DNA of 64,000 nucleotides from positions 2,908 to 66,907 of the IMG/VR virus record IMGVR_UViG_3300044911_000926, one strand, 5' to 3'. Shown piece after piece: positions 1 to 15,139 of this stretch. Position 1 is the first letter of the stretch. Each line of letters begins with the position of its first letter. This stretch comes from a virus. The position numbers were made by a program, and so were the translations under genes. A model generated the notes under the pieces. That model was not told where the DNA came from and ran no database searches. It saw only the letters and a program-made list of their open reading frames with translations.

Positions 1-150
1 GTCACGACGGGTGTGACACGAGAACGACTTGTCCTTCCGTTCGCAGCGCCAGTTACCCGACGTGTCCCGGAATACGACGTAAGGAACGCCGAAGTACACG
101 GCATTGTCCTTGGCTTGGCGTAACGCCGCTTTGTAGCTGTTGGCGAGCAA
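1..150 (-). CDS. hypothetical phage protein (runs off window edge)
   Basis: TTG start with GAGGAG RBS; MLANSYKAALRQAKDNAVYFGVPYVVF... open to position 1. Confidence 0.55.
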   Translation of the reverse strand, partial: MLANSYKAALRQAKDNAVYFGVPYVVFRDTSGNWRCERKDKSFSCHTRRD

Positions 151-164
151 TTTGTACTCCTCGG

Positions 165-356
165 TTAGCGTGACTGGACAGGTTCGATGTAGCACCCCTT
201 ATTCGGGCCTAATTCGTGCTTATCGGCGTGCATCTGGTCGGTTGCCTCTCTCCGGGCAAGGCTGGTGCTTCCGGCCTCTACGACGAAACTACGAGGGCCT
301 CCGGACTTACGGTCGGTATAGTGTCGGACTTGAAAGAACGTGACTTTGTAGAGCAT
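165..356 (-). CDS. small protein, DpnD/PcfM-like (Y.VT...VEA.S..A motif)
   Basis: ATG at 356 after GGGAG; MLYKVTF...VVEAGSTSLAR; resembles 5127-5312 and 6793-6981. Confidence 0.6.
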   Translation of the reverse strand: MLYKVTFFQVRHYTDRKSGGPRSFVVEAGSTSLARREATDQMHADKHELGPNKGCYIEPVQSR

Positions 357-365
357 TGTGAACTC

Positions 366-430
366 CCAGGCTTGTGACTGGCTCAACACTGTGTTGAGGC
401 CGCATTATGCCCCGAAGGGCACACTCTGCG
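366..430 (-). ncRNA. twister ribozyme (P5-type permutation), copy 1
   Basis: CGCA GA GUG UGCCC-UUCG-GGGCA UAA UGCG GC [P3 CUCAACA/UGUUGAG] CCAG UCACAAGC CUGG; all twister core elements present; predicted cut U407/A406. Confidence 0.92.
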
Positions 431-847
431 TTACTCGAAGCGAACCATGCCGTCGTAGATGTACAGGTAGCACTCGCTGAACTTGTTAGCAATGTCGGAC
501 AACTTGTCCTTAACAGAGTCATCCCACCTGCCACAATCCCAGAAACCCGTACCGTGACCGTTGCGGGTCAACCAGAAGTCGTGACCGGCTAGGTCTAGGT
601 AATTCCATTCACCGGACTCTCGAAGGCAGTTGTCGCTGCACAACATGTCACCGGCTAACTCCCTGAACTTGTTACAGTCCTCGACGATCTTCTTGAGCGA
701 GTCAGGATGAATGTCGTGACCGCTGTACCGGTTCTCGAAAGGCTCGTCGAAATGTTCATCATCATCGTCTCTACTGATCGTCTCTGACCACAAGGCAGCA
801 ACGATGTAAGCCTTGGTGAATCGGTCAAGGCTGTCAAAGTTTGACAT
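431..847 (-). CDS. conserved phage hypothetical protein
   Basis: 138 aa, GGAG RBS, YIVAALWS...AGHDFWLTRNGHGTGFWD motif seen in phage early genes. Confidence 0.85.
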   Translation of the reverse strand: MSNFDSLDRFTKAYIVAALWSETISRDDDDEHFDEPFENRYSGHDIHPDSLKKIVEDCNKFRELAGDMLCSDNCLRESGEWNYLDLAGHDFWLTRNGHGTGFWDCGRWDDSVKDKLSDIANKFSECYLYIYDGMVRFE

Positions 848-867
848 AGCAATACTCCAGATAGGGT

Positions 868-928
868 TAGTGAAACCAAGCAGTCCCCTAGACGCTGCTG
901 CTGAACAGGGGATAGTCAGGTGCCACTA
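868..928 (-). ncRNA. unrecognised structured hairpin with AGCAGCAGC loop, copy 1
   Basis: outer stem UAGUGGCACC/GGUUUCACUA, inner stem UCCCCUG/UAGGGGA (G-U pair only on minus strand), 15-nt loop. Confidence 0.7.
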
Positions 929-979
929 GGCTCGGATCAGGTATTCTTCGTCACCGAAGTTGACAACGTGGTAGTCCGC
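875..979. repeat. direct repeat of ~1655-1762 (3' end of ArdA-like gene plus hairpin motif)
   Basis: 875-929 = 1655-1709 (55 bp identical); 933-961 = 1716-1744 (29 bp identical); encodes orphan ADYHVVNFGDEEYLIRA*. Confidence 0.95.
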
Positions 980-1004
980 TCGGTGTCAAATGTGGGTGCT
1001 TCGA

Positions 1005-1616
1005 CTACTTGCTCCCAACCGACTTCATCAGCGCCTCTGTGGCCTTTCGCTTCAACCATACAGAGATTCTCTTTTCTGACCATTCTGGCAGATGCTCGTC
1101 CACAGTGAAATTGATCCTTGCTTCGATGCCATTGCGAATCTTGACCGTAACGCTTGGCTCTGCCTCGTCTTTCAGTTGGTCGAAGGAATGGAATCCATCG
1201 ATACACGACTTGTTGGTGAGGGAAATATATTCTGCGACTTCCGAAGGTGCTTCCTTTGGGTCGATCCAAGGGCCTTTTCCTCGACGACGAACACCGGAAA
1301 CCTTGAGTCCTTGCGTTTTTGCTCCGATCCAGTTGCGGACTCTCGCTTGCCATCGTCGAGATACTTTCCCGCTGCTTGGCAGAGAGAATTGCCCGACCGG
1401 GTCTTTCCCTTCCCGAGCGACATAGCGGTAGTAGTCTCGCCACGCTTGAAGCTCTTGCTCGGCAGTTGGGACATCGGACTCGTCGCAGTCCTCGTGGTTC
1501 CCGTCACTGTCGCATTCGGAGTACGTTCCGTCGTCTGGATAGTACCAGTAGTGTGACAGATGCCATGTGTCGCAGTCGTCACAGAAGTACGGGATTGTTG
1601 AGATAATGTCATACAC
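1005..1616 (-). CDS. hypothetical protein
   Basis: 203 aa ORF, AAGGA RBS, N-terminal CxxC, lies between the two repeat copies. Confidence 0.75.
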   Translation of the reverse strand: MYDIISTIPYFCDDCDTWHLSHYWYYPDDGTYSECDSDGNHEDCDESDVPTAEQELQAWRDYYRYVAREGKDPVGQFSLPSSGKVSRRWQARVRNWIGAKTQGLKVSGVRRRGKGPWIDPKEAPSEVAEYISLTNKSCIDGFHSFDQLKDEAEPSVTVKIRNGIEARINFTVDEHLPEWSEKRISVWLKRKATEALMKSVGSK

Positions 1617-1649
1617 GACTTGTTCCTTGTGGTTCGAGTATTGAAGCAG

Positions 1650-1706
1650 GTAACACCAAGCAGTCCCCTAGACGCTGCTGCTGAACAGGGGATAGTCAGG
1701 TGCCAC
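1650..1706 (-). ncRNA. AGCAGCAGC-loop hairpin, copy 2
   Basis: outer stem GUGGCACC/GGUGUUAC; inner stem and loop identical to copy 1. Confidence 0.7.
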
Positions 1707-2092
1707 TAGCAGGAACGGATCAGGTATTCTTCGTCACCGAAGTTAACTACGCTGTAGTCTGCTTCCATGTTGTCGGCAGTCGCTTCCCAGTCGATGACGA
1801 TCCAACTAGGTAAGTCTTTTGGTATATAGCCGATGTCCTCAAGCAACTGCTGACAATACTCGACCCAGTAGTTACGGTGGATCAACGTCTCTCCATGCTC
1901 CCAGTCACCGCATCCTTCGCACTCCTCGATGAGTTCCTTGAGGGTTTCATACTCCGCTTCGTCATCAAAGTCCCACTCATCGGTATCTTGTGTTGCATCC
2001 TCTAACATATCACGCCTGCTCTGAAGTTCCTCGAAGCGAGCGATGACATCACGGCTGTCGATGACTTTGTCACCAGGTTCTGGTGTGGACAT
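1706..2092 (-). CDS. ardA: ArdA-like anti-restriction protein (acidic DNA mimic)
   Basis: very acidic; YCQQLLEDIGYIPKDLPSWIVIDWEATADNMEADY resembles the ArdA C-terminal domain. Confidence 0.7.
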   Translation of the reverse strand: MSTPEPGDKVIDSRDVIARFEELQSRRDMLEDATQDTDEWDFDDEAEYETLKELIEECEGCGDWEHGETLIHRNYWVEYCQQLLEDIGYIPKDLPSWIVIDWEATADNMEADYSVVNFGDEEYLIRSC

Positions 2093-2153
2093 TGTCTTGT
2101 TCTCCTAAGTAGTGGTAGTTGTGAAAATTTCGAAACATTATCGACCTGAACCG

Positions 2154-2468
2154 TCAGTTGGAATCTAGGTCACTCGGTCGATCGAACCGCAGATTGAAGG
2201 CAGCCTCGAACAGATCGTCAGGCCAAGGCTGTATGAATCCACCCTTTACGTCAACGTCGATCTTCACGTCCTTGCAGAACAGTTGAAGCTCGTCCGTTCG
2301 GAGGTCTCCGCTGCGGACTGCCTGAAGCAACCGCAGGATGTAGTGCTCGGAGCCTGTTAGCCGACTTATATCGGCTACTCTCCGATGGTTCCTGATGTCG
2401 CATTCGGCCTTAGCAATCTCCTGCTTGAAGTGATCGCATTGAAACTCGTCGTAATAGACGGTGATCAT
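2154..2468 (-). CDS. hypothetical protein
   Basis: 104 aa, GGAG RBS, in operon. Confidence 0.75.
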   Translation of the reverse strand: MITVYYDEFQCDHFKQEIAKAECDIRNHRRVADISRLTGSEHYILRLLQAVRSGDLRTDELQLFCKDVKIDVDVKGGFIQPWPDDLFEAAFNLRFDRPSDLDSN

Positions 2469-2495
2469 TGTCTTGCTCTCCAGGGTTGGTGGTGG

Positions 2496-2828
2496 TCAGT
2501 GAAAGCCGCGAAGCGTTTTGTACAACGCCCTGGCTTCGTTGCCGATTCGCATTGCCTCGTCCTTGTCTACAGGTCTGTTGCATCCGGCTGCCGTAAGCTC
2601 AGAGTCAGCATGGACCAGAATCTGTCGTGCATCCCTCAGCCGAAACGTCATCCAGTCAAGAGCGGCAAGTAATTGACCCTCTGCAACTTCGTTTCCACGC
2701 CGTAGGTTTTCCGCCATGTCGGCTATCATCGCAGGCACATTCCACTTGTCGGGCTTGTTCATGCAGTCCATCGTCTCTGCATAACCGGCTGGAACATATT
2801 CGTTTCCGTCATCATCTCGGACTGTCAT
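2496..2828 (-). CDS. hypothetical protein
   Basis: 110 aa, GAGG RBS. Confidence 0.75.
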   Translation of the reverse strand: MTVRDDDGNEYVPAGYAETMDCMNKPDKWNVPAMIADMAENLRRGNEVAEGQLLAALDWMTFRLRDARQILVHADSELTAAGCNRPVDKDEAMRIGNEARALYKTLRGFH

Positions 2829-2852
2829 CGATCTGTCCTCTATCTGGTAAGG

Positions 2853-2909
2853 GTAAAACCAACAATCCCCACGAGTGCTGCTGCTAAACGTGGGGCGAGC
2901 AGGGTTTAC
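2853..2909 (-). ncRNA. AGCAGCAGC-loop hairpin, copy 3
   Basis: inner stem CCCCACG/CGUGGGG, loop UUUAGCAGCAGCACU, outer stem GUAAACC/GGUUUUAC. Confidence 0.7.
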
Positions 2910-3448
2910 TCTACACGACGACGAACACGGATCTCGTCAGGACCGATCATTCTGTACCATTCGTAGTGACCGACATAGACGATGCCAGAGTCGGTCGCAT
3001 TGGGCTGGTACTGGTACGCTTCGTCGAGTTCCCAGTTGTCCCAATGGTGGCTCTTTGATGCTCCGACCTGAAAGTAAAACTTACACCAACGAGTGCAGAA
3101 GCAACGTAGCTGGTAGTCGTTCTCGTAACCCATGTTGACCATGCGTTCGAGCAACTTGTCGAAGGCGTTGTACGCTTCGTGAATCTCGTCCATCGGCACT
3201 GGCTTCAAGAGGTCAAGCCAGATGTCGTAGGCGACGTGTTCGCTGTCGGCACAGATCAGGTGAGTTGGTCCGTACTCGAAACCGAACAGGAACATCATGC
3301 CGTCACCGATGGCATCATTGCCGTAGTATTCGACCTTGGTTAAGTGGTCACGATCCTTGTCGTAGTAAAAGAAGTCGAACTTTGCCATGCCGTTGATGAG
3401 GTCAACGACATCAGCAAGGTTGATGTCAGATGTATGCGTTTCTGTCAT
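2906..3448 (-). CDS. hypothetical protein
   Basis: ATG at 3448 (MTETHTSD...) after a GGAAG leader like neighbouring genes. Confidence 0.75.
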   Translation of the reverse strand: MTETHTSDINLADVVDLINGMAKFDFFYYDKDRDHLTKVEYYGNDAIGDGMMFLFGFEYGPTHLICADSEHVAYDIWLDLLKPVPMDEIHEAYNAFDKLLERMVNMGYENDYQLRCFCTRWCKFYFQVGASKSHHWDNWELDEAYQYQPNATDSGIVYVGHYEWYRMIGPDEIRVRRRVE

Positions 3449-3472
3449 AGCAATCTTCCAGGTTAAAGGGGT

Positions 3473-3533
3473 AAGTGAAACCAACTATGCCGCGAGACGC
3501 TGCTGCTGGGTCGCGGCGAGGCAGGGTCCACTC
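3473..3533 (-). ncRNA. AGCAGCAGC-loop hairpin, copy 4
   Basis: inner stem GCCGCGA/UCGCGGC, loop CCCAGCAGCAGCGUC, outer stem GAGUGGACC/GGUUUCACUU. Confidence 0.7.
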
Positions 3534-4170
3534 AACGAGGGGAACTGGGGTGAAGTCGGTCGCGGCGAGCCTTCCACAGAAGGCGTGCAAGGTCGTCACG
3601 CGGGATCTGTCCAGACTCGACCCTAATACTGACTCCGCTTCCGTCGTCGTAATACGGTTCGGTAGCGTACTTCAAGAACAGTTCTCGCAAGTCATCGTTG
3701 CTAACGTCATCGAGCAGCGATCTGGTCGATTCGTAGAGAGCGAAGTCATCGGAAAGGCGATCGCGGAATCCGGTGCATCCCCAACTATCCCACGACTGCT
3801 CAAATTCCTCCCACTCACGATTAGACCAATCTTGGTCGTCGAGTGCTGGGTAATTCTCCAGCGATCGAGCCATGTCATAGGCTGACTTGAGAGCCTTCTC
3901 ATCCTCTGGCGATACGATGATGATCTCGTACCAACCTGGTCCCCAATGACCGAATCGGTGGACTTCGACAGTCTCAGACTCGCCACCTAGACCGTCTAGG
4001 AACGAATGGAAATTGGACTCGTCTAACGGTCCACTGTCACGGGTTCTGCTGACTGGCATGACGAACCACTTGGAACGTTCCGTGTCCTCGTCGTCGATGT
4101 TGATGTTGCGATCAAAGGCGGTAGGGCTATGGTCGCCGTATCGCTCGAAGCAATCGTCGTACACTGACAT
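3532..4170 (-). CDS. conserved acidic phage hypothetical protein
   Basis: 212 aa; RTRDS..LDESNF...HRFGHWGPGWYE...LENYPALDD motif. Confidence 0.85.
   Translation of the reverse strand: MSVYDDCFERYGDHSPTAFDRNINIDDEDTERSKWFVMPVSRTRDSGPLDESNFHSFLDGLGGESETVEVHRFGHWGPGWYEIIIVSPEDEKALKSAYDMARSLENYPALDDQDWSNREWEEFEQSWDSWGCTGFRDRLSDDFALYESTRSLLDDVSNDDLRELFLKYATEPYYDDGSGVSIRVESGQIPRDDLARLLWKARRDRLHPSSPR
3535..3554 (-). promoter_or_regulatory. TTCAC-N5-TTCCCCTCGT motif (putative phage-sigma promoter)
   Basis: one of 7 exact copies, all co-oriented with downstream genes. Confidence 0.65.
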
Positions 4171-4180
4171 TGCAATTCTC

Positions 4181-4251
4181 CCAGGCTTGTGACTGGTTGC
4201 TCACATCGAGCAAGCCGCATTAAGCCCTGCACAGGCAAGGCTCACTCTGCG
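4181..4251 (-). ncRNA. twister ribozyme (P5-type), copy 2
   Basis: CGCA GA GUG AGCCUUGC/GCAGGGCU UAA UGCG GC UUGCUC/GAGCAA CCAG UCACAAGC CUGG; predicted cut 4222/4221. Confidence 0.92.
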
Positions 4252-4809
4252 TTAGGACTTCGGAGTGTAGATACACTCGTCGTTGTCTACTCGGTAGACA
4301 GGGTAAGGGCACTTGCCTTCCTCGAACCAGTCAGGGCCGAAGCAGTAAGCCTTGGCACCGTCATCACAAGGATTCTTGAGGTAACAGGCACCGGGAGCAC
4401 AGGGAGAGCAGAACTGTGCTCTGGTGTAGTAGATCGACTTGGTGATGAAGATGTCAGGACTATCGTAACCCTGCTCTGCCGTGATCTCCTCATCGTCAAC
4501 AAAGTGTGACTGAGGCTCATCGCCGTATGCGTACTCGCTCCCCATGTAGTGTTCACAGCGTTGGCAGGCGTAGTCTCGGTCGATCGTCCTGCGGTAGTCG
4601 TCGTAACTCTCGTGCTTTGACTCGTCGTACTCCACTGCATCACCGCCACAATTGGGACACGCTGGACTGCCGTAGAACCCTTCAGCAGACTCGTACCACG
4701 CACTGCCAACAGCATGGTGAGGGATGACACCGTATCGAATATCGGCGTCTCGGTCGATGTTTGACATACCCATGCCGTAGTCAATACCGCGATAATCAGT
4801 CTTGGACAT
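4252..4809 (-). CDS. Cys-rich (Zn-binding) phage hypothetical protein
   Basis: ATG 4809 with GGAG; CPNC, CQRC and CSPCAPGAC motifs. Confidence 0.8.
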   Translation of the reverse strand: MSKTDYRGIDYGMGMSNIDRDADIRYGVIPHHAVGSAWYESAEGFYGSPACPNCGGDAVEYDESKHESYDDYRRTIDRDYACQRCEHYMGSEYAYGDEPQSHFVDDEEITAEQGYDSPDIFITKSIYYTRAQFCSPCAPGACYLKNPCDDGAKAYCFGPDWFEEGKCPYPVYRVDNDECIYTPKS

Positions 4810-4837
4810 ACTAAAACTCCAGAACAAGGGAATGGAC

Positions 4838-4853
4838 GCGACCCCGGGGTCGC
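4838..4853. repeat. perfect palindrome GCGACCCCGGGGTCGC, copy 1
   Basis: exact 16-mer, 19 bp downstream of promoter-like motif 4873-4892. Confidence 0.95.
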
Positions 4854-4872
4854 ATTGAAAACCGGACACCAA

Positions 4873-4892
4873 ACGAGGGGAAACGGGGTGAA
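4873..4892 (-). promoter_or_regulatory. TTCAC-N5-TTCCCCTCGT motif
   Basis: exact copy, intergenic. Confidence 0.65.
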
Positions 4893-4899
4893 GTCGGCC

Positions 4900-5130
4900 T
4901 CAGAGCCGGTTCTTGTAGCCGATCGTCCGCGTCACGCCACGGAACCTGACTTTGTTGCCAACGATACGAAACTTGACGTGTTCAACATTCTTGATTCCCC
5001 ATCCGTATTCAACCTCGACAGTGTCTTTGTCAAGGTTGATCGACCGGACATTGCCACGTCCGTACTGCCAGTTGATACGCTTGATCGTGTCCTCAAGCTG
5101 ATCTAGGTCTATCTTTGCAGGCATTATCAA
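4900..5130 (-). CDS. hypothetical protein
   Basis: 76 aa, overlaps the upstream stop codon. Confidence 0.7.
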   Translation of the reverse strand: MIMPAKIDLDQLEDTIKRINWQYGRGNVRSINLDKDTVEVEYGWGIKNVEHVKFRIVGNKVRFRGVTRTIGYKNRL

Positions 5131-5312
5131 TCTCCAGATGGCTCCACGAGCAGGATTTCTTCGTCACACTCTACTGGAGGAGAATTGAACAAGACTTCTC
5201 CAGATTCAAGCATTTCATTGACTTTTTCCCAAGCGTCATCGCCTGATTCGGCTTCGACAGCCACCCTCTTTGTGTAGCGATCGATCCTCTCAACTGTCAC
5301 GATGTACTGCAT
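5127..5312 (-). CDS. DpnD/PcfM-like small protein
   Basis: MQYIVTVERIDRYTKRVAVEAESGDDAWEKV. Confidence 0.7.
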   Translation of the reverse strand: MQYIVTVERIDRYTKRVAVEAESGDDAWEKVNEMLESGEVLFNSPPVECDEEILLVEPSGD

Positions 5313-5321
5313 AACCAATCT

Positions 5322-5384
5322 CCAGGCTTTGAACTGGCTAGCGAAGTGCTAGGCCGCATTACACCCCGAAGGGTGTCATCTGCG
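5322..5384 (-). ncRNA. twister ribozyme (P5-type), copy 3
   Basis: CGCA GA UGA CACCC-UUCG-GGGUG UAA UGCG GC CUAGC/GCUAG CCAG UUCAAAGC CUGG; T1 pseudoknot covaries (UGA/UCA); predicted cut 5361/5360. Confidence 0.92.
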
Positions 5385-5440
5385 TTTAGTTTCGTCGCAT
5401 GATCTACTCCATAAAACGAGGAAATTGATGTCATCTGCGT

Positions 5441-5752
5441 TCAACTACCAACACCAGTCCTTCGCTCAAGGTCCATCTGCTCCCACTTGCTTCCACACTC
5501 GATGCACATGGACAACGCTACGGCATAGCGATCGTCGTCGATTCCACAAGAAGCAACGCCGAACAGGTCTGCCAACTTGTGCGCCCAGAGGATGCCGACA
5601 GGGTGATTACAGATGTCATCCGTTGCGGTGACTCCAAGGAGCCTGAGTTCATCCATTGCAAAGACAAAACTACGGACAATGCCTAGCGGGTTACATGCGT
5701 CCTGGACATCGACTGCCTCTTTTGCAAGGTGTCCAAACTTATCATCTAACAT
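5441..5752 (-). CDS. hypothetical protein
   Basis: 103 aa, GGGAG RBS; AKEAVDVQDACNPLG motif. Confidence 0.8.
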   Translation of the reverse strand: MLDDKFGHLAKEAVDVQDACNPLGIVRSFVFAMDELRLLGVTATDDICNHPVGILWAHKLADLFGVASCGIDDDRYAVALSMCIECGSKWEQMDLERRTGVGS

Positions 5753-5796
5753 GAAATCTACTCCCGAAAACGAGGAACTCGAAAAACCGACACCAA

Positions 5797-5816
5797 ACGA
5801 GGGGAAACGGCGTGAA
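5797..5816 (-). promoter_or_regulatory. TTCAC-N5-TTCCCCTCGT motif
   Basis: exact copy, intergenic. Confidence 0.65.
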
Positions 5817-5879
5817 ACCGACCTCGGACAACACGCACGCCATCCCCGACGATACCAGCCTATAAAGACCGGGTATCAT

Positions 5880-6420
5880 CAGGTTGGCGATTGCTTGACT
5901 TCAATTGCGTTGTATCAGTGACTCAGGTAACTCGGGCTTATGCTACGGCTTTTTGCTGGAATCGTCTGTGGACCCGGACGCTGGCGTGCTTTACGAGATC
6001 AACTACTCGTTCGTTGCCGGGAAAAACTCCTGATGGAGAAGCCATATTTCACCTCTGTATTCGCCTAGCCCGTCTCGGTCGTGACCGATACTCTAGGCTT
6101 CCTTGACGGTGGGATTAACACCGCTCACTATCACTTTCCGGCTCTGCTTTCTCGGGTGCTACAGCCGGTCAACCGATCCCCGAAGGCTTTGTTATCACCT
6201 AGACAACGCAATTGTCGATTACTCGATCCGTGAAACGCTTACAGCCAAGTGATTGCTCACCTGGCTGTTGGCGTAGACTGTTGTGGCGGAACCCAACGCA
6301 CAACAAGATTCGGTTGATCGTTAAGAGTGTCATGAATTGGGTTCCTTTGCCGCCTTGTCTAAGGGCGACATTAACACTCTATCTACTGTCCCGAAGGAGT
6401 CAATAGGGAAGCGATGAAAA
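5880..6420 (-). ncRNA. large structured ncRNA, ROOL-like
   Basis: ~540 nt with no credible ORF; long-range helices 5902-5913/6203-6214 (12 bp) and 6169-6176/6310-6317 cross each other (pseudoknot); many local hairpins; size and architecture recall ROOL. Confidence 0.65.
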
Positions 6421-6450
6421 TCACCGATTGACACCTTGACGATGGAACCG
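6421..6450. repeat. duplicate of the 3' end of CDS 7074-7292
   Basis: 28/30 identical to 7074-7103 (RFHRQGVNR*). Confidence 0.9.
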
Positions 6451-6753
6451 TTAGGCGTCCTTGGCTTTGGATATCGCTTCGCCGACAGCTTCCAAGACCT
6501 TCGAGTCGCTGAATGGAGCAGGTTGCCCACCAAGCATCCACTTCTGCACCAGTTCACACGCTTCCAGAAGGTCTGGCGCTGCGGCGATCAGCCTAGCGTT
6601 TGCTTGTCGCTGCTCGTTTTCATCCTTGGCTTGAGGGTGACTGTTCAGTTCTGTCGTGCTGGCAATTTGGTATCCACTTGTCGTTTGAACGTGAAATCTT
6701 GGATTGGCTCCACGTCCGAGGTGAAACATCCAAGGTCCAGGTGTGTGTCTCAT
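6451..6753 (-). CDS. conserved phage protein (HTPGPW...ANARLIAAAPDLLEA family)
   Basis: motif widespread in phage early regions. Confidence 0.85.
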   Translation of the reverse strand: MRHTPGPWMFHLGRGANPRFHVQTTSGYQIASTTELNSHPQAKDENEQRQANARLIAAAPDLLEACELVQKWMLGGQPAPFSDSKVLEAVGEAISKAKDA

Positions 6754-6792
6754 TTAGCAATACTCCAATAAAAGGGTGAAACGGACGGGAAT

Positions 6793-6981
6793 CTAGCAAC
6801 CATAGCCCTGACAGGCACCAGTGCCGTTGTCTAGGCAGTATTGGCATTCGGCATACAGGACCGACTCACCATCCTTGGTCGTCAGTTCAACCTTATCAAT
6901 GGCTGACTCAGACGATTCGGCTTCAACAGTGACAGTCTCCAAGAACCGTTCGACACGTTCGACGGTGACTTGATAACGCAT
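6793..6981 (-). CDS. DpnD/PcfM-like small protein
   Basis: MRYQVTVERVERFLETVTVEAESSESAIDKV; GGAG RBS. Confidence 0.7.
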   Translation of the reverse strand: MRYQVTVERVERFLETVTVEAESSESAIDKVELTTKDGESVLYAECQYCLDNGTGACQGYGC

Positions 6982-7008
6982 AGCGATACTCCAGTAGAGG
7001 GGTATAAA

Positions 7009-7072
7009 ACGGGCTTGCAACCGTCTGCCGTAGGGCAGGCCGCATTAACGCCCCGGAGGGCGCTGCTCTGCG
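7009..7072 (-). ncRNA. twister ribozyme (P5-type), copy 4
   Basis: CGCA GA GCA GCGCCC/GGGCGU UAA UGCG GC CUGCC/GGCAG ACGG UUGCAAGC CCGU; T1 covaries (GCA/UGC); predicted cut 7047/7046. Confidence 0.92.
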
Positions 7073-7073
7073 A

Positions 7074-7292
7074 TTACCGATTGACACCCTGACGATGGAA
7101 CCGATCGTAAAGATCGTCCCACCTCACTGACAGGAAGCTATCCAGAACTCTGGCAACGCTATCCACCACAGCTTCAGTGTCGAAGTCATCCCCAAGTCGA
7201 GACTCATGCTTGGCGTGAGACATCATCTCGCAGATCATTGCGAGTGCATTCTGTTCCCTTTCGCTGAACTGAATCTTACTGTCACCTGACAT
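7074..7292 (-). CDS. hypothetical protein
   Basis: 72 aa, TGGAGTATCGCTATG leader shared with other early genes. Confidence 0.75.
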   Translation of the reverse strand: MSGDSKIQFSEREQNALAMICEMMSHAKHESRLGDDFDTEAVVDSVARVLDSFLSVRWDDLYDRFHRQGVNR

Positions 7293-11967: not shown

Positions 11968-12015
11968 GTGGCTGAAGGAATTTGGGAGCAAGAAGCGATA
12001 AAACCAGCCAAGCAC

Positions 12016-12044
12016 TTGACACCACCTGTCGCATTTGCGACACT
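12016..12044 (+). promoter_or_regulatory. sigma70-type promoter TTGACA-N17-GACACT with embedded TGTCGCA-TT-TGCGACA operator
   Basis: near-identical copy at 13112-13140. Confidence 0.75.
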
Positions 12045-12087
12045 TACTCTGCGTCGTTTGTTATTTGACTCTAAATGGAGACACACA

Positions 12088-13108: not shown

Positions 13109-13111
13109 TGC

Positions 13112-13140
13112 TTGACACCGCCTGTCTCATTTGCGACACT
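13112..13140 (+). promoter_or_regulatory. sigma70-type promoter with TGTC-N8-GACA operator
   Basis: TTGACA-N17-GACACT. Confidence 0.75.
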
Positions 13141-13170
13141 TCATAAATCACTTAGCCACTGGAGGTAACA

Positions 13171-14783: not shown

Positions 14784-15057
14784 GCGACCAGACGGATTCC
14801 GAGTCAGGATCAAGGTCAGCCTAATGGTTGACCTCCAAGGTTTTAGTTGGCACTTCTCCGTTGACTGGTGCAAGCCTGGAAAGAGGACATGGATTTTTCC
14901 AGTCGACAAGAACTGCTACTCATATAGGAGACTTTCTTCCGAGGACAGGGACAAATTGATTCGCAATCAGTCGCTTCTTTTGGCAAGCGCAGAGGAGGTC
15001 CATTGCGTTATGGTTGAGTTGTGGGAAAAGTTAAGGCCAAGCATAGAAACCTCTTGA
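14758..15057 (+). CDS. hypothetical protein
   Basis: GGAGG RBS, 99 aa. Confidence 0.7.
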   Translation: MMQHEKIVKRPDGFRVRIKVSLMVDLQGFSWHFSVDWCKPGKRTWIFPVDKNCYSYRRLSSEDRDKLIRNQSLLLASAEEVHCVMVELWEKLRPSIETS

Positions 15058-15082
15058 CACTCGCTGTCCCGATTGAGACAAT
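15054..15082 (+). promoter_or_regulatory. sigma70-type promoter TTGACA-N17-GACAAT with TGTC-N8-GACA operator
   Basis: same geometry as 12016 and 13112. Confidence 0.7.
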
Positions 15083-15139
15083 TCGACCACTTCAGTTTGT
15101 TAGATAGGATTGAGAACTCTAAATAAAGGATGTTGAAAG

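Follow-up and report, generated by a model that had tools for sequence, protein, structure and literature searches.

Twister ribozymes between the small genes of a tailed phage seem to mark gene-swap sites rather than to belong to one protein family

Introduction

Self-cleaving ribozymes of bacteria have been described as lying near specific gene classes (PMC5737381, PMC6765202). The role of twister ribozymes in bacteria and phages was still open in a 2019 review, which called for more work (PMC6765202, section 13). Clustered hammerhead ribozymes in prophages flank single genes of varying identity, implying the processing of long transcripts (Perreault et al., 2011, PMC3088659), and the processing idea has also been discussed for twisters (PMC6765202, sections 5 and 13). 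Here we describe twisters of the P5 type (Rfam RF02684; Roth et al., 2014, as cited in PMC6765202) in the 66,907-base IMG/VR virus record IMGVR_UViG_3300044911_000926, which is rated complete by CheckV. The stretch analysed, hereafter the window, is its bases 2908–66907 (64,000 nucleotides, nt). The plus strand carries a large terminase, a portal protein, a major head protein and a helicase, and these PHROGs assignments identify the virus as an uncultured 67-kb tailed phage. The twisters lie in its minus-strand left arm, which runs from window position 1 to ~9000 and includes the 2907 preceding bases (within locus L001, bases 1–3400 of the record). The arm holds ~25 small genes, nearly all without a function assignable by Pfam or PHROGs.

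The ribozymes belong to an established class, and their kind of setting is known as well. They share with the type-P5 twister its core, helices P1–P4, pseudoknots T1 and T2 and the P5 circular permutation; the copies here differ in lacking a P5 helix, in a 5' end set at a stop codon and in a 3' end fused to the Shine–Dalgarno (SD) sequence. P4 reads CCAG/CUGG in the three SD-fused copies of the window, compared with CCGG/CCGG in the Rfam consensus. As in the prophage hammerhead clusters, several self-cleaving ribozymes stand among small, varying phage genes, and this genome likewise has a hammerhead; the main ribozyme class is different, and relative to the parts of that paper used here the ribozyme–SD fusion and the crossovers in the core are new (PMC3088659). 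The HHphage hammerhead of haloviruses HF1 and HF2 is also a natural phage ribozyme immediately 5' of an early gene. It lies 13 nt upstream of the start codon, and a 5' end was mapped within three nucleotides of its cleavage site; it belongs to an archaeal virus, and the passages of PMC3088659 that deal with it describe no SD overlap. In engineered SD-masking switches (Felletti et al., 2016, PMC5052635) a twister is likewise placed just 5' of a bacterial start with SD bases in a helix. In those designs the partner strand of the SD, in P1 or P3, is set free by cleavage, whereas here 1–2 SD bases pair in a P4 that is retained; leftover hairpins just 5' of the SD reduced expression in those switches. 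Our literature search found no natural twister P4–SD fusion and no ribozyme cores as crossover points of phage mosaics.

The locus is a compact natural test case, with five co-oriented twisters, and a close relative that differs by whole gene-plus-twister units adds to its value. It separates punctuation of the mRNA from gating of translation, both of which can be tested at the bench, and adds a third idea, that ribozyme cores serve as recombination joints of phage gene mosaics. A tempting partnership between twisters and one protein family is removed here as unsupported.

Results and discussion

Five twisters with a conserved fold

Rfam searches gave four Twister-P5 matches in the window, all on the minus strand, which is the gene strand. 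Their scores were 42.5–47.5 bits, each above the gathering score of 37.6 bits; a fifth twister of this genome, outside the window, also exceeded it (Table 1). We aligned nine twisters, five from this genome and four from a related viral record (G001), and counted pairs over a structure that included both pseudoknots. Pairing was found in 97.1% of the cells, and 15 of the 23 pairs were altered on both sides. None of 500 shuffles matched the observed covariation, and structures slid by 1–3 columns were 29–37% paired. Compensatory changes were spread across helices P1–P4 and T1. In T1, all three pairs covaried and pairing was 100%, with the variants GUG/CAC, GCA/UGC, UGA/UCA and GGG/CCC; T2 consists of two invariant G-C pairs. 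Since T1 lies outside the Rfam model, its covariation is independent evidence for selection on the RNA fold. The family score, the compensatory helices and the T1/T2 double pseudoknot were thus all present, and as judged from sequence all five are genuine twister ribozymes; self-cleavage itself is predicted. The order of elements is the P5 permutation, but the flanks form no P5 helix (duplex energies −1.3 to −4.6 kcal/mol).

Crossovers inside P4 distinguish the relatives

One related viral record, G001 (75% complete), has seven twisters. Over the segment that starts at the stop codon and ends with the 3' strand of P4, twister 430 and G001 twister 20538 have the same sequence; they part at the SD. 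In a second G001 twister, 20153, helices P1, P2 and P3 are different, the changes being compensatory, and the sequence from P4 on, with the downstream gene, is that of twister 430. An extra gene of 105 amino acids (aa) lies between G001 twisters 20538 and 20153. Twister 4251 matches G001 twister A at 99% identity, and an extra 99-aa gene follows twister A. The P4, SD and downstream gene of twister 4251 also occur with G001 twister B, although the body of twister B is only 66% identical. By these comparisons, twisters 430 and 4251 are each chimeric relative to two G001 twisters, and the differences amount to two independent insertions or deletions of a unit made of SD, gene and twister body, each with its crossover inside the shared P4 segment. 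The extra genes of these G001 units are not DpnD-like. The preliminary description of this DNA had proposed that twister and DpnD/PcfM-like gene travel as a cassette; in general form, as ribozyme–gene units exchanged through P4, the proposal is borne out, and the link to that gene family is not.

Contigs from four wastewater runs of one study (at least 90% likeness; library label RNA-Seq, contigs rated probably DNA) supplied further relatives. A 7.5-kb contig had no differences at 5317–5386 (twister 5384) or at 4802–4895 (another intergenic element), while the flanking and intervening genes were replaced by 370, 373 and 517 unalignable letters. In this alignment, replacement affects the genes, and the intergenic elements on either side stay nearly identical; the replacing sequence near twister 5384 may include a strongly diverged DpnD-like gene. 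Some joints of the wastewater contigs connect 5386 with 5462 and 5386 with 5756, at the region of a partial twister copy. This copy repeats 13 nt of the start of twister 5384 and sits directly after the stop of gene 5441–5752, where it opens the spacer of 56 nt that separates twister 5384 from the upstream stop; it is probably a recombination scar. Further joints (434 with 812, 2081 with 2850, 6418 with 6790) fall a few bases from the ends of genes or elements. Direct repeats at 870–980/1650–1763 and 6420–6450/7073–7103 are 87–97% identical and comprise the 3' end of a gene with the intergenic element that follows. They look like footprints of cassette duplication or deletion, and the contig of one relative joins 949 to 1769.

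The presence or absence of twisters at matching positions in close relatives (five here, seven in G001) and the existence of partial-twister scars would also fit passengers, that is, twisters which persist only as recombination or selfish sequences and whose cutting of mRNA brings the phage nothing. We regard this as quite improbable. Compensatory changes keep all helices and T1, which calls for selection at the level of the RNA fold, beyond the DNA sequence alone; moreover, all five twisters are co-oriented with the genes, and most leave little room to the stop codon on one side and the SD on the other.

The SD is fused to the end of P4

Each twister takes up the gap between two genes, with a stop codon on its 5' side and an SD on its 3' side. 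The upstream stop codon lies 0–1 nt from the 5' end in three of the four window twisters (430, 4251 and 7072). At the other end, the SD overlaps the 3' strand of P4 by 1–2 nt in three of the four window twisters and in four of the five genome-wide. In twister 5384, the SD GGAG (5323–5320) takes its first two G from the end of P4 and is followed by a 7-nt spacer and the AUG at 5312. Twisters 4251 and 430 both carry the SD GGGAG (4182–4178 and 367–363, respectively) with a 2-nt P4 overlap; their spacers are 7 nt to the AUG at 4170 and 6 nt to the AUG at 356. The positions therefore agree with the preliminary description, in which the 3' strand of P4 supplied G residues of the SD in three twisters, 6–7 nt before AUG. 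The SD of the fifth twister, GAGG, also overlaps P4 and has a 4-nt spacer to AUG; twister 7072 has a separate SD, 16 nt past P4.

For comparison, IMG/VR was scanned for the twister core, which gave a sample of at least 119 stretches. At least 149 core matches, including this lineage, were classified as 50 P5-type, 51 P1-type and 48 without a P2 partner, the last being left out as unverified. When full T1 pairing and P4 pairing were required, 45 P5-type and 39 P1-type remained among the matches listed. Outside this lineage, the matches listed contained 35 verified P5-type twisters. Of these, 23 had, within 120 nt downstream, an SD-led open reading frame (ORF) of 40 aa or more; the other 12 had none. 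In none of the 23 did the SD overlap P4, and it started at +7 or later; among the matches listed, SD/P4 overlap thus appears confined to this lineage.

The preliminary description had inferred a translation gate. In such a gate the folded twister would bury the start of the SD, its first G, in P4, keeping the 30S subunit away; cleavage with loss of the 5' fragment would then loosen the fold and switch translation on. Besides the overlap itself, T1 locks the P4 loop to a strand that departs with the 5' product, and engineered SD-masking twisters, when active, raise expression 5- to ~100-fold (PMC5052635). We nevertheless consider such a gate unlikely here. The cleavage site is 5' of P2 and therefore both P4 strands stay in the 3' product; the P4 partner of the SD is not removed, and what is lost is T1 and P2. 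Just 1–2 of the 4–5 SD bases are paired, at the end of the helix. In nested folds, which do not model pseudoknots, the SD-opening energies shift inconsistently on cleavage (1.1 to 2.0, 2.3 to 1.4, 5.9 to 5.5 and 2.9 to 3.6 kcal/mol, before and after). The comparison outside the lineage speaks against a gate as well, as does the presence of the same start context without twisters. The usual start context of the arm is YUGGAG, ~7 nt and AUG, and CUGGAG or UGGAG occurs at starts that do not abut twisters (6981, 5124, 4809, 2468, 847 and 7292). Hence the CUGG that P4 seems to supply also stands before GGAG at other sites of this phage. The overlap is best explained as fusion of the P4 CUGG to the usual start context of the phage, and a switch released by cleavage is a less likely explanation of it.

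Twisters as proposed mRNA cutters and joints for gene exchange

The reading that we favour, at a probability of roughly 60%, is a double role for the twisters, as cutters that divide a multi-gene mRNA between its genes and as conserved joints for gene exchange. The arm would be transcribed as a long multi-gene RNA, and each twister would cut this RNA just past its own P1 hairpin. The upstream mRNA would be left ending in the stable P1 hairpin with a 2',3'-cyclic phosphate, and the downstream mRNA would carry a 5'-OH, with hairpins P3 and P4 standing ahead of the SD and the AUG. The outcome would be mRNAs of gene length, each with a stability and a translation of its own. For the conserved P4/SD junction, the comparisons above show that gene-plus-twister units have come or gone there in relatives. 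A single long transcript from 7300 down to 1 and beyond is plausible, if weakly supported, because a scan of the window showed no terminator-like site below 7381 on the minus strand.

Several points weigh against this reading. We infer both co-transcription and self-cleavage, and the number of promoter- and terminator-like sites was not above that in shuffles. In E. coli reporters, according to the part of PMC5052635 used here, cleavage of a twister in the 5' untranslated region with a free SD left expression unchanged; therefore, processing alone may have little effect. The evidence for recombination comes from one relative genome and the contigs of one study, and fits insertion as well as deletion. 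Finally, the chance that both DpnD-like genes of this genome are twister-led is ~0.03 if 5 of 25 gaps hold a twister, which speaks for the dedicated pairing considered below.

More tentatively, the conserved P4/SD end might be a portable joint that gives recombined-in genes a ready ribosome-binding site and a self-trimmed 5' end; the accessory arm would then behave as an array of swappable, ribozyme-bounded cassettes, and D2, a repeat described below, could be an undescribed self-cleaving class.

Two DpnD/PcfM-like genes behind the twisters

The preliminary description had placed three DpnD/PcfM-like paralogues behind three of the four window twisters, and this was sustained for two genes. Gene 6793–6981 reached the Pfam cut-off of PF14207 (25 bits). 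Gene 5127–5312 stayed below it and is recognized as a paralogue by its 41% identity to 6793–6981 (BLASTP, E 7e-11); it also matched the family hidden Markov model (HMM) at E 1.8e-26, though the 16 sequences of that HMM include 5127–5312. In six frames of the entire record, these two were the only PF14207 matches. Gene 165–356 gave no Pfam match at E ≤ 1, including PF14207, no BLASTP alignment to either gene and no match at E ≤ 10 with the 16-sequence HMM, and its hhalign probability against the DpnD-like family was 7%. On these results it is not demonstrably a third paralogue. The motif seen in it by eye needs a 7-residue insertion and reads VEA.S...A rather than VEA.S..A, and its homologues are confined to its own near-identical cluster. 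An AlphaFold2 model of 165–356 (mean predicted local distance difference test, pLDDT, 86.6) has the order beta-beta-alpha-beta, and the poor DpnD-like model (pLDDT 59.4) has the same order, a weak likeness at 60 residues. The model of 165–356 had no fold match at E ≤ 0.001 in PDB or BFVD.

Demonstrable DpnD-like genes therefore follow two of the five twisters, not three of four. Both of them and their two orthologues in G001 are twister-led, as would be expected of a dedicated module in which the DpnD/PcfM-like protein needs or acts on the upstream ribozyme and the pair is a functional unit. Most of the evidence goes the other way, and we consider such a module hardly tenable. Unrelated genes follow three of the five twisters here and five of the seven in G001. 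The two DpnD-linked twisters share only 55% identity, no closer than other twister pairs, and thus give no sign of a duplicated twister-plus-DpnD unit.

Nor did the pairing recur elsewhere as had been proposed. In the wastewater contig described above, twister 5384 is unchanged and the sequence downstream of it is a different one. A survey of 73 non-redundant ORFs downstream of twisters outside the lineage did not have PF14207 among the 25 most-matched Pfam families (E ≤ 0.01). The family HMM, run against 21,252 six-frame ORFs (1.16 Mb of loci), found the two window genes, their two orthologues in the relative (locus L002) and one further marginal match, 9 kb from a twister. Whole-record searches covered 49 other twister-bearing viral records, drawn from 59 verified-twister loci, and PF14207 exceeded the cut-off in none. 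Weaker matches occurred in 4 of the 49, and four of the five such matches look like real family members. In the reverse direction, a survey that rests on four weak DpnD-like genes in three twister-bearing records, no twister-like core was found within ~1.5 kb on either strand of any of the four. When two family members were compared with 50,697 phage records by tblastn, nothing matched, and an alignment of three DpnD-like sequences found no relative in metagenome contigs or viral contigs. Our literature search, which did not cover the published lists of ribozyme-associated gene classes, found no paper joining twister, ribozyme and PcfM. On this evidence, the two DpnD/PcfM-like paralogues behind twisters are a local feature of the lineage, and the twisters seem to mark sites where related phages swap genes; they do not seem tied to a single protein family.

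Other elements of the arm and related arrays

Four other gaps of the arm are filled by a 57-nt structured repeat, named D2 here, which is placed between stop codon and SD like the twisters. D2 folds into an outer helix of 8 bp and a hairpin of 7 bp whose AGCAGCAGC loop is invariant. Pairing was found in 94% of the cells, 7 of the 15 pairs were altered on both sides, and none of 500 shuffles scored as high. The D2 hairpin was found elsewhere in IMG/VR only in the relative G001 (3 of 79 pattern matches in 78 stretches). We regard D2 as a candidate functional RNA of an undescribed kind, possibly a ribozyme. A second intergenic sequence, D1 (also named here), consists of UUCAC, 4 nt and GUUUCCCCUCGU, and often overlaps or directly follows a stop codon. 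No convincing pairing was found in D1, and its exact pattern had only three matches elsewhere in IMG/VR. Neither D1 nor D2 matched an Rfam family, even at E ≤ 10 on 8.6 kb.

Table 1. Positions of ribozymes, genes and other elements (window coordinates unless a locus is given; D1 and D2, repeats named in this work).
Feature	Position	Strand	Remarks
Twister 7072	7009–7072	minus	47.5 bits; 1 nt past stop of gene 7074–7292
Twister 5384	5322–5384	minus	42.5 bits; T1 covaries as UGA/UCA
Twister 4251	4181–4251	minus	46.6 bits; adjoins stop of gene 4252–4809
Twister 430	366–430	minus	46.7 bits; adjoins stop of gene 431–847
Fifth twister	L001 1253–1199	minus	48.4 bits; outside window; 5' of an unrelated 82-aa gene
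Partial copy of twister 5384 start	5429–5441	minus	13 nt: P2 strand, T1 strand, beginning of P1
Type-I hammerhead match	L001 180–132	minus	28.5 bits (gathering score 34), E 3.8e-4; far end of arm, outside window
DpnD/PcfM-like gene	6793–6981	minus	62 aa; PF14207 26.7 bits, E 5.6e-6 (six-frame 25.9 bits)
DpnD/PcfM-like paralogue	5127–5312	minus	61 aa; PF14207 18.1 bits, below cut-off
Gene, not DpnD-like	3532–4170	minus	212 aa; 3' of twister 4251; no Pfam match; PHROGs of unknown function only
Orphan gene, not demonstrably DpnD-like	165–356	minus	63 aa; confident beta-beta-alpha-beta model
Sigma-70-like site	9092–9065	minus	10 of 12 matches
Terminator-like hairpins	7827–7798; 7396–7381	minus	
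D2 copies	926–870; 1706–1650; 2909–2853; 3531–3475	minus	
D2 copies	L125 7692–7636; 6708–6652; 5457–5401		
D1 copies	~9150; 8270; 7609–7579; 7433–7403; 5823–5793; 4899–4869; 3561–3531	minus	
D1 copy	L001 ~2190	minus	
Group-II-intron D1-D4 weak match	6219–6298		24.2 bits (gathering score 34), E 0.075
31-nt repeat	12015–12045; 13111–13141; 15053–15083	plus	

Window positions 5830–6420 form a stretch of ~600 nt without a convincing ORF. This stretch is conserved in G001 and in the wastewater contigs (5756–6418 aligned), contains a weak group-II-intron match (Table 1) and possibly encodes a large non-coding RNA.

An unrelated 5.5-kb viral contig (L058, IMGVR_UViG_3300012948_000209) carries six P5-type twisters at 2724–5402, ~420–590 nt apart. 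Each lies 32–54 nt 5' of an SD-led small gene, where one was found. It is a denser ribozyme-punctuated array than the present locus.

On the plus strand of the window, a 31-nt sequence beginning CTTGACAC occurs three times and looks like a repeated promoter or operator.

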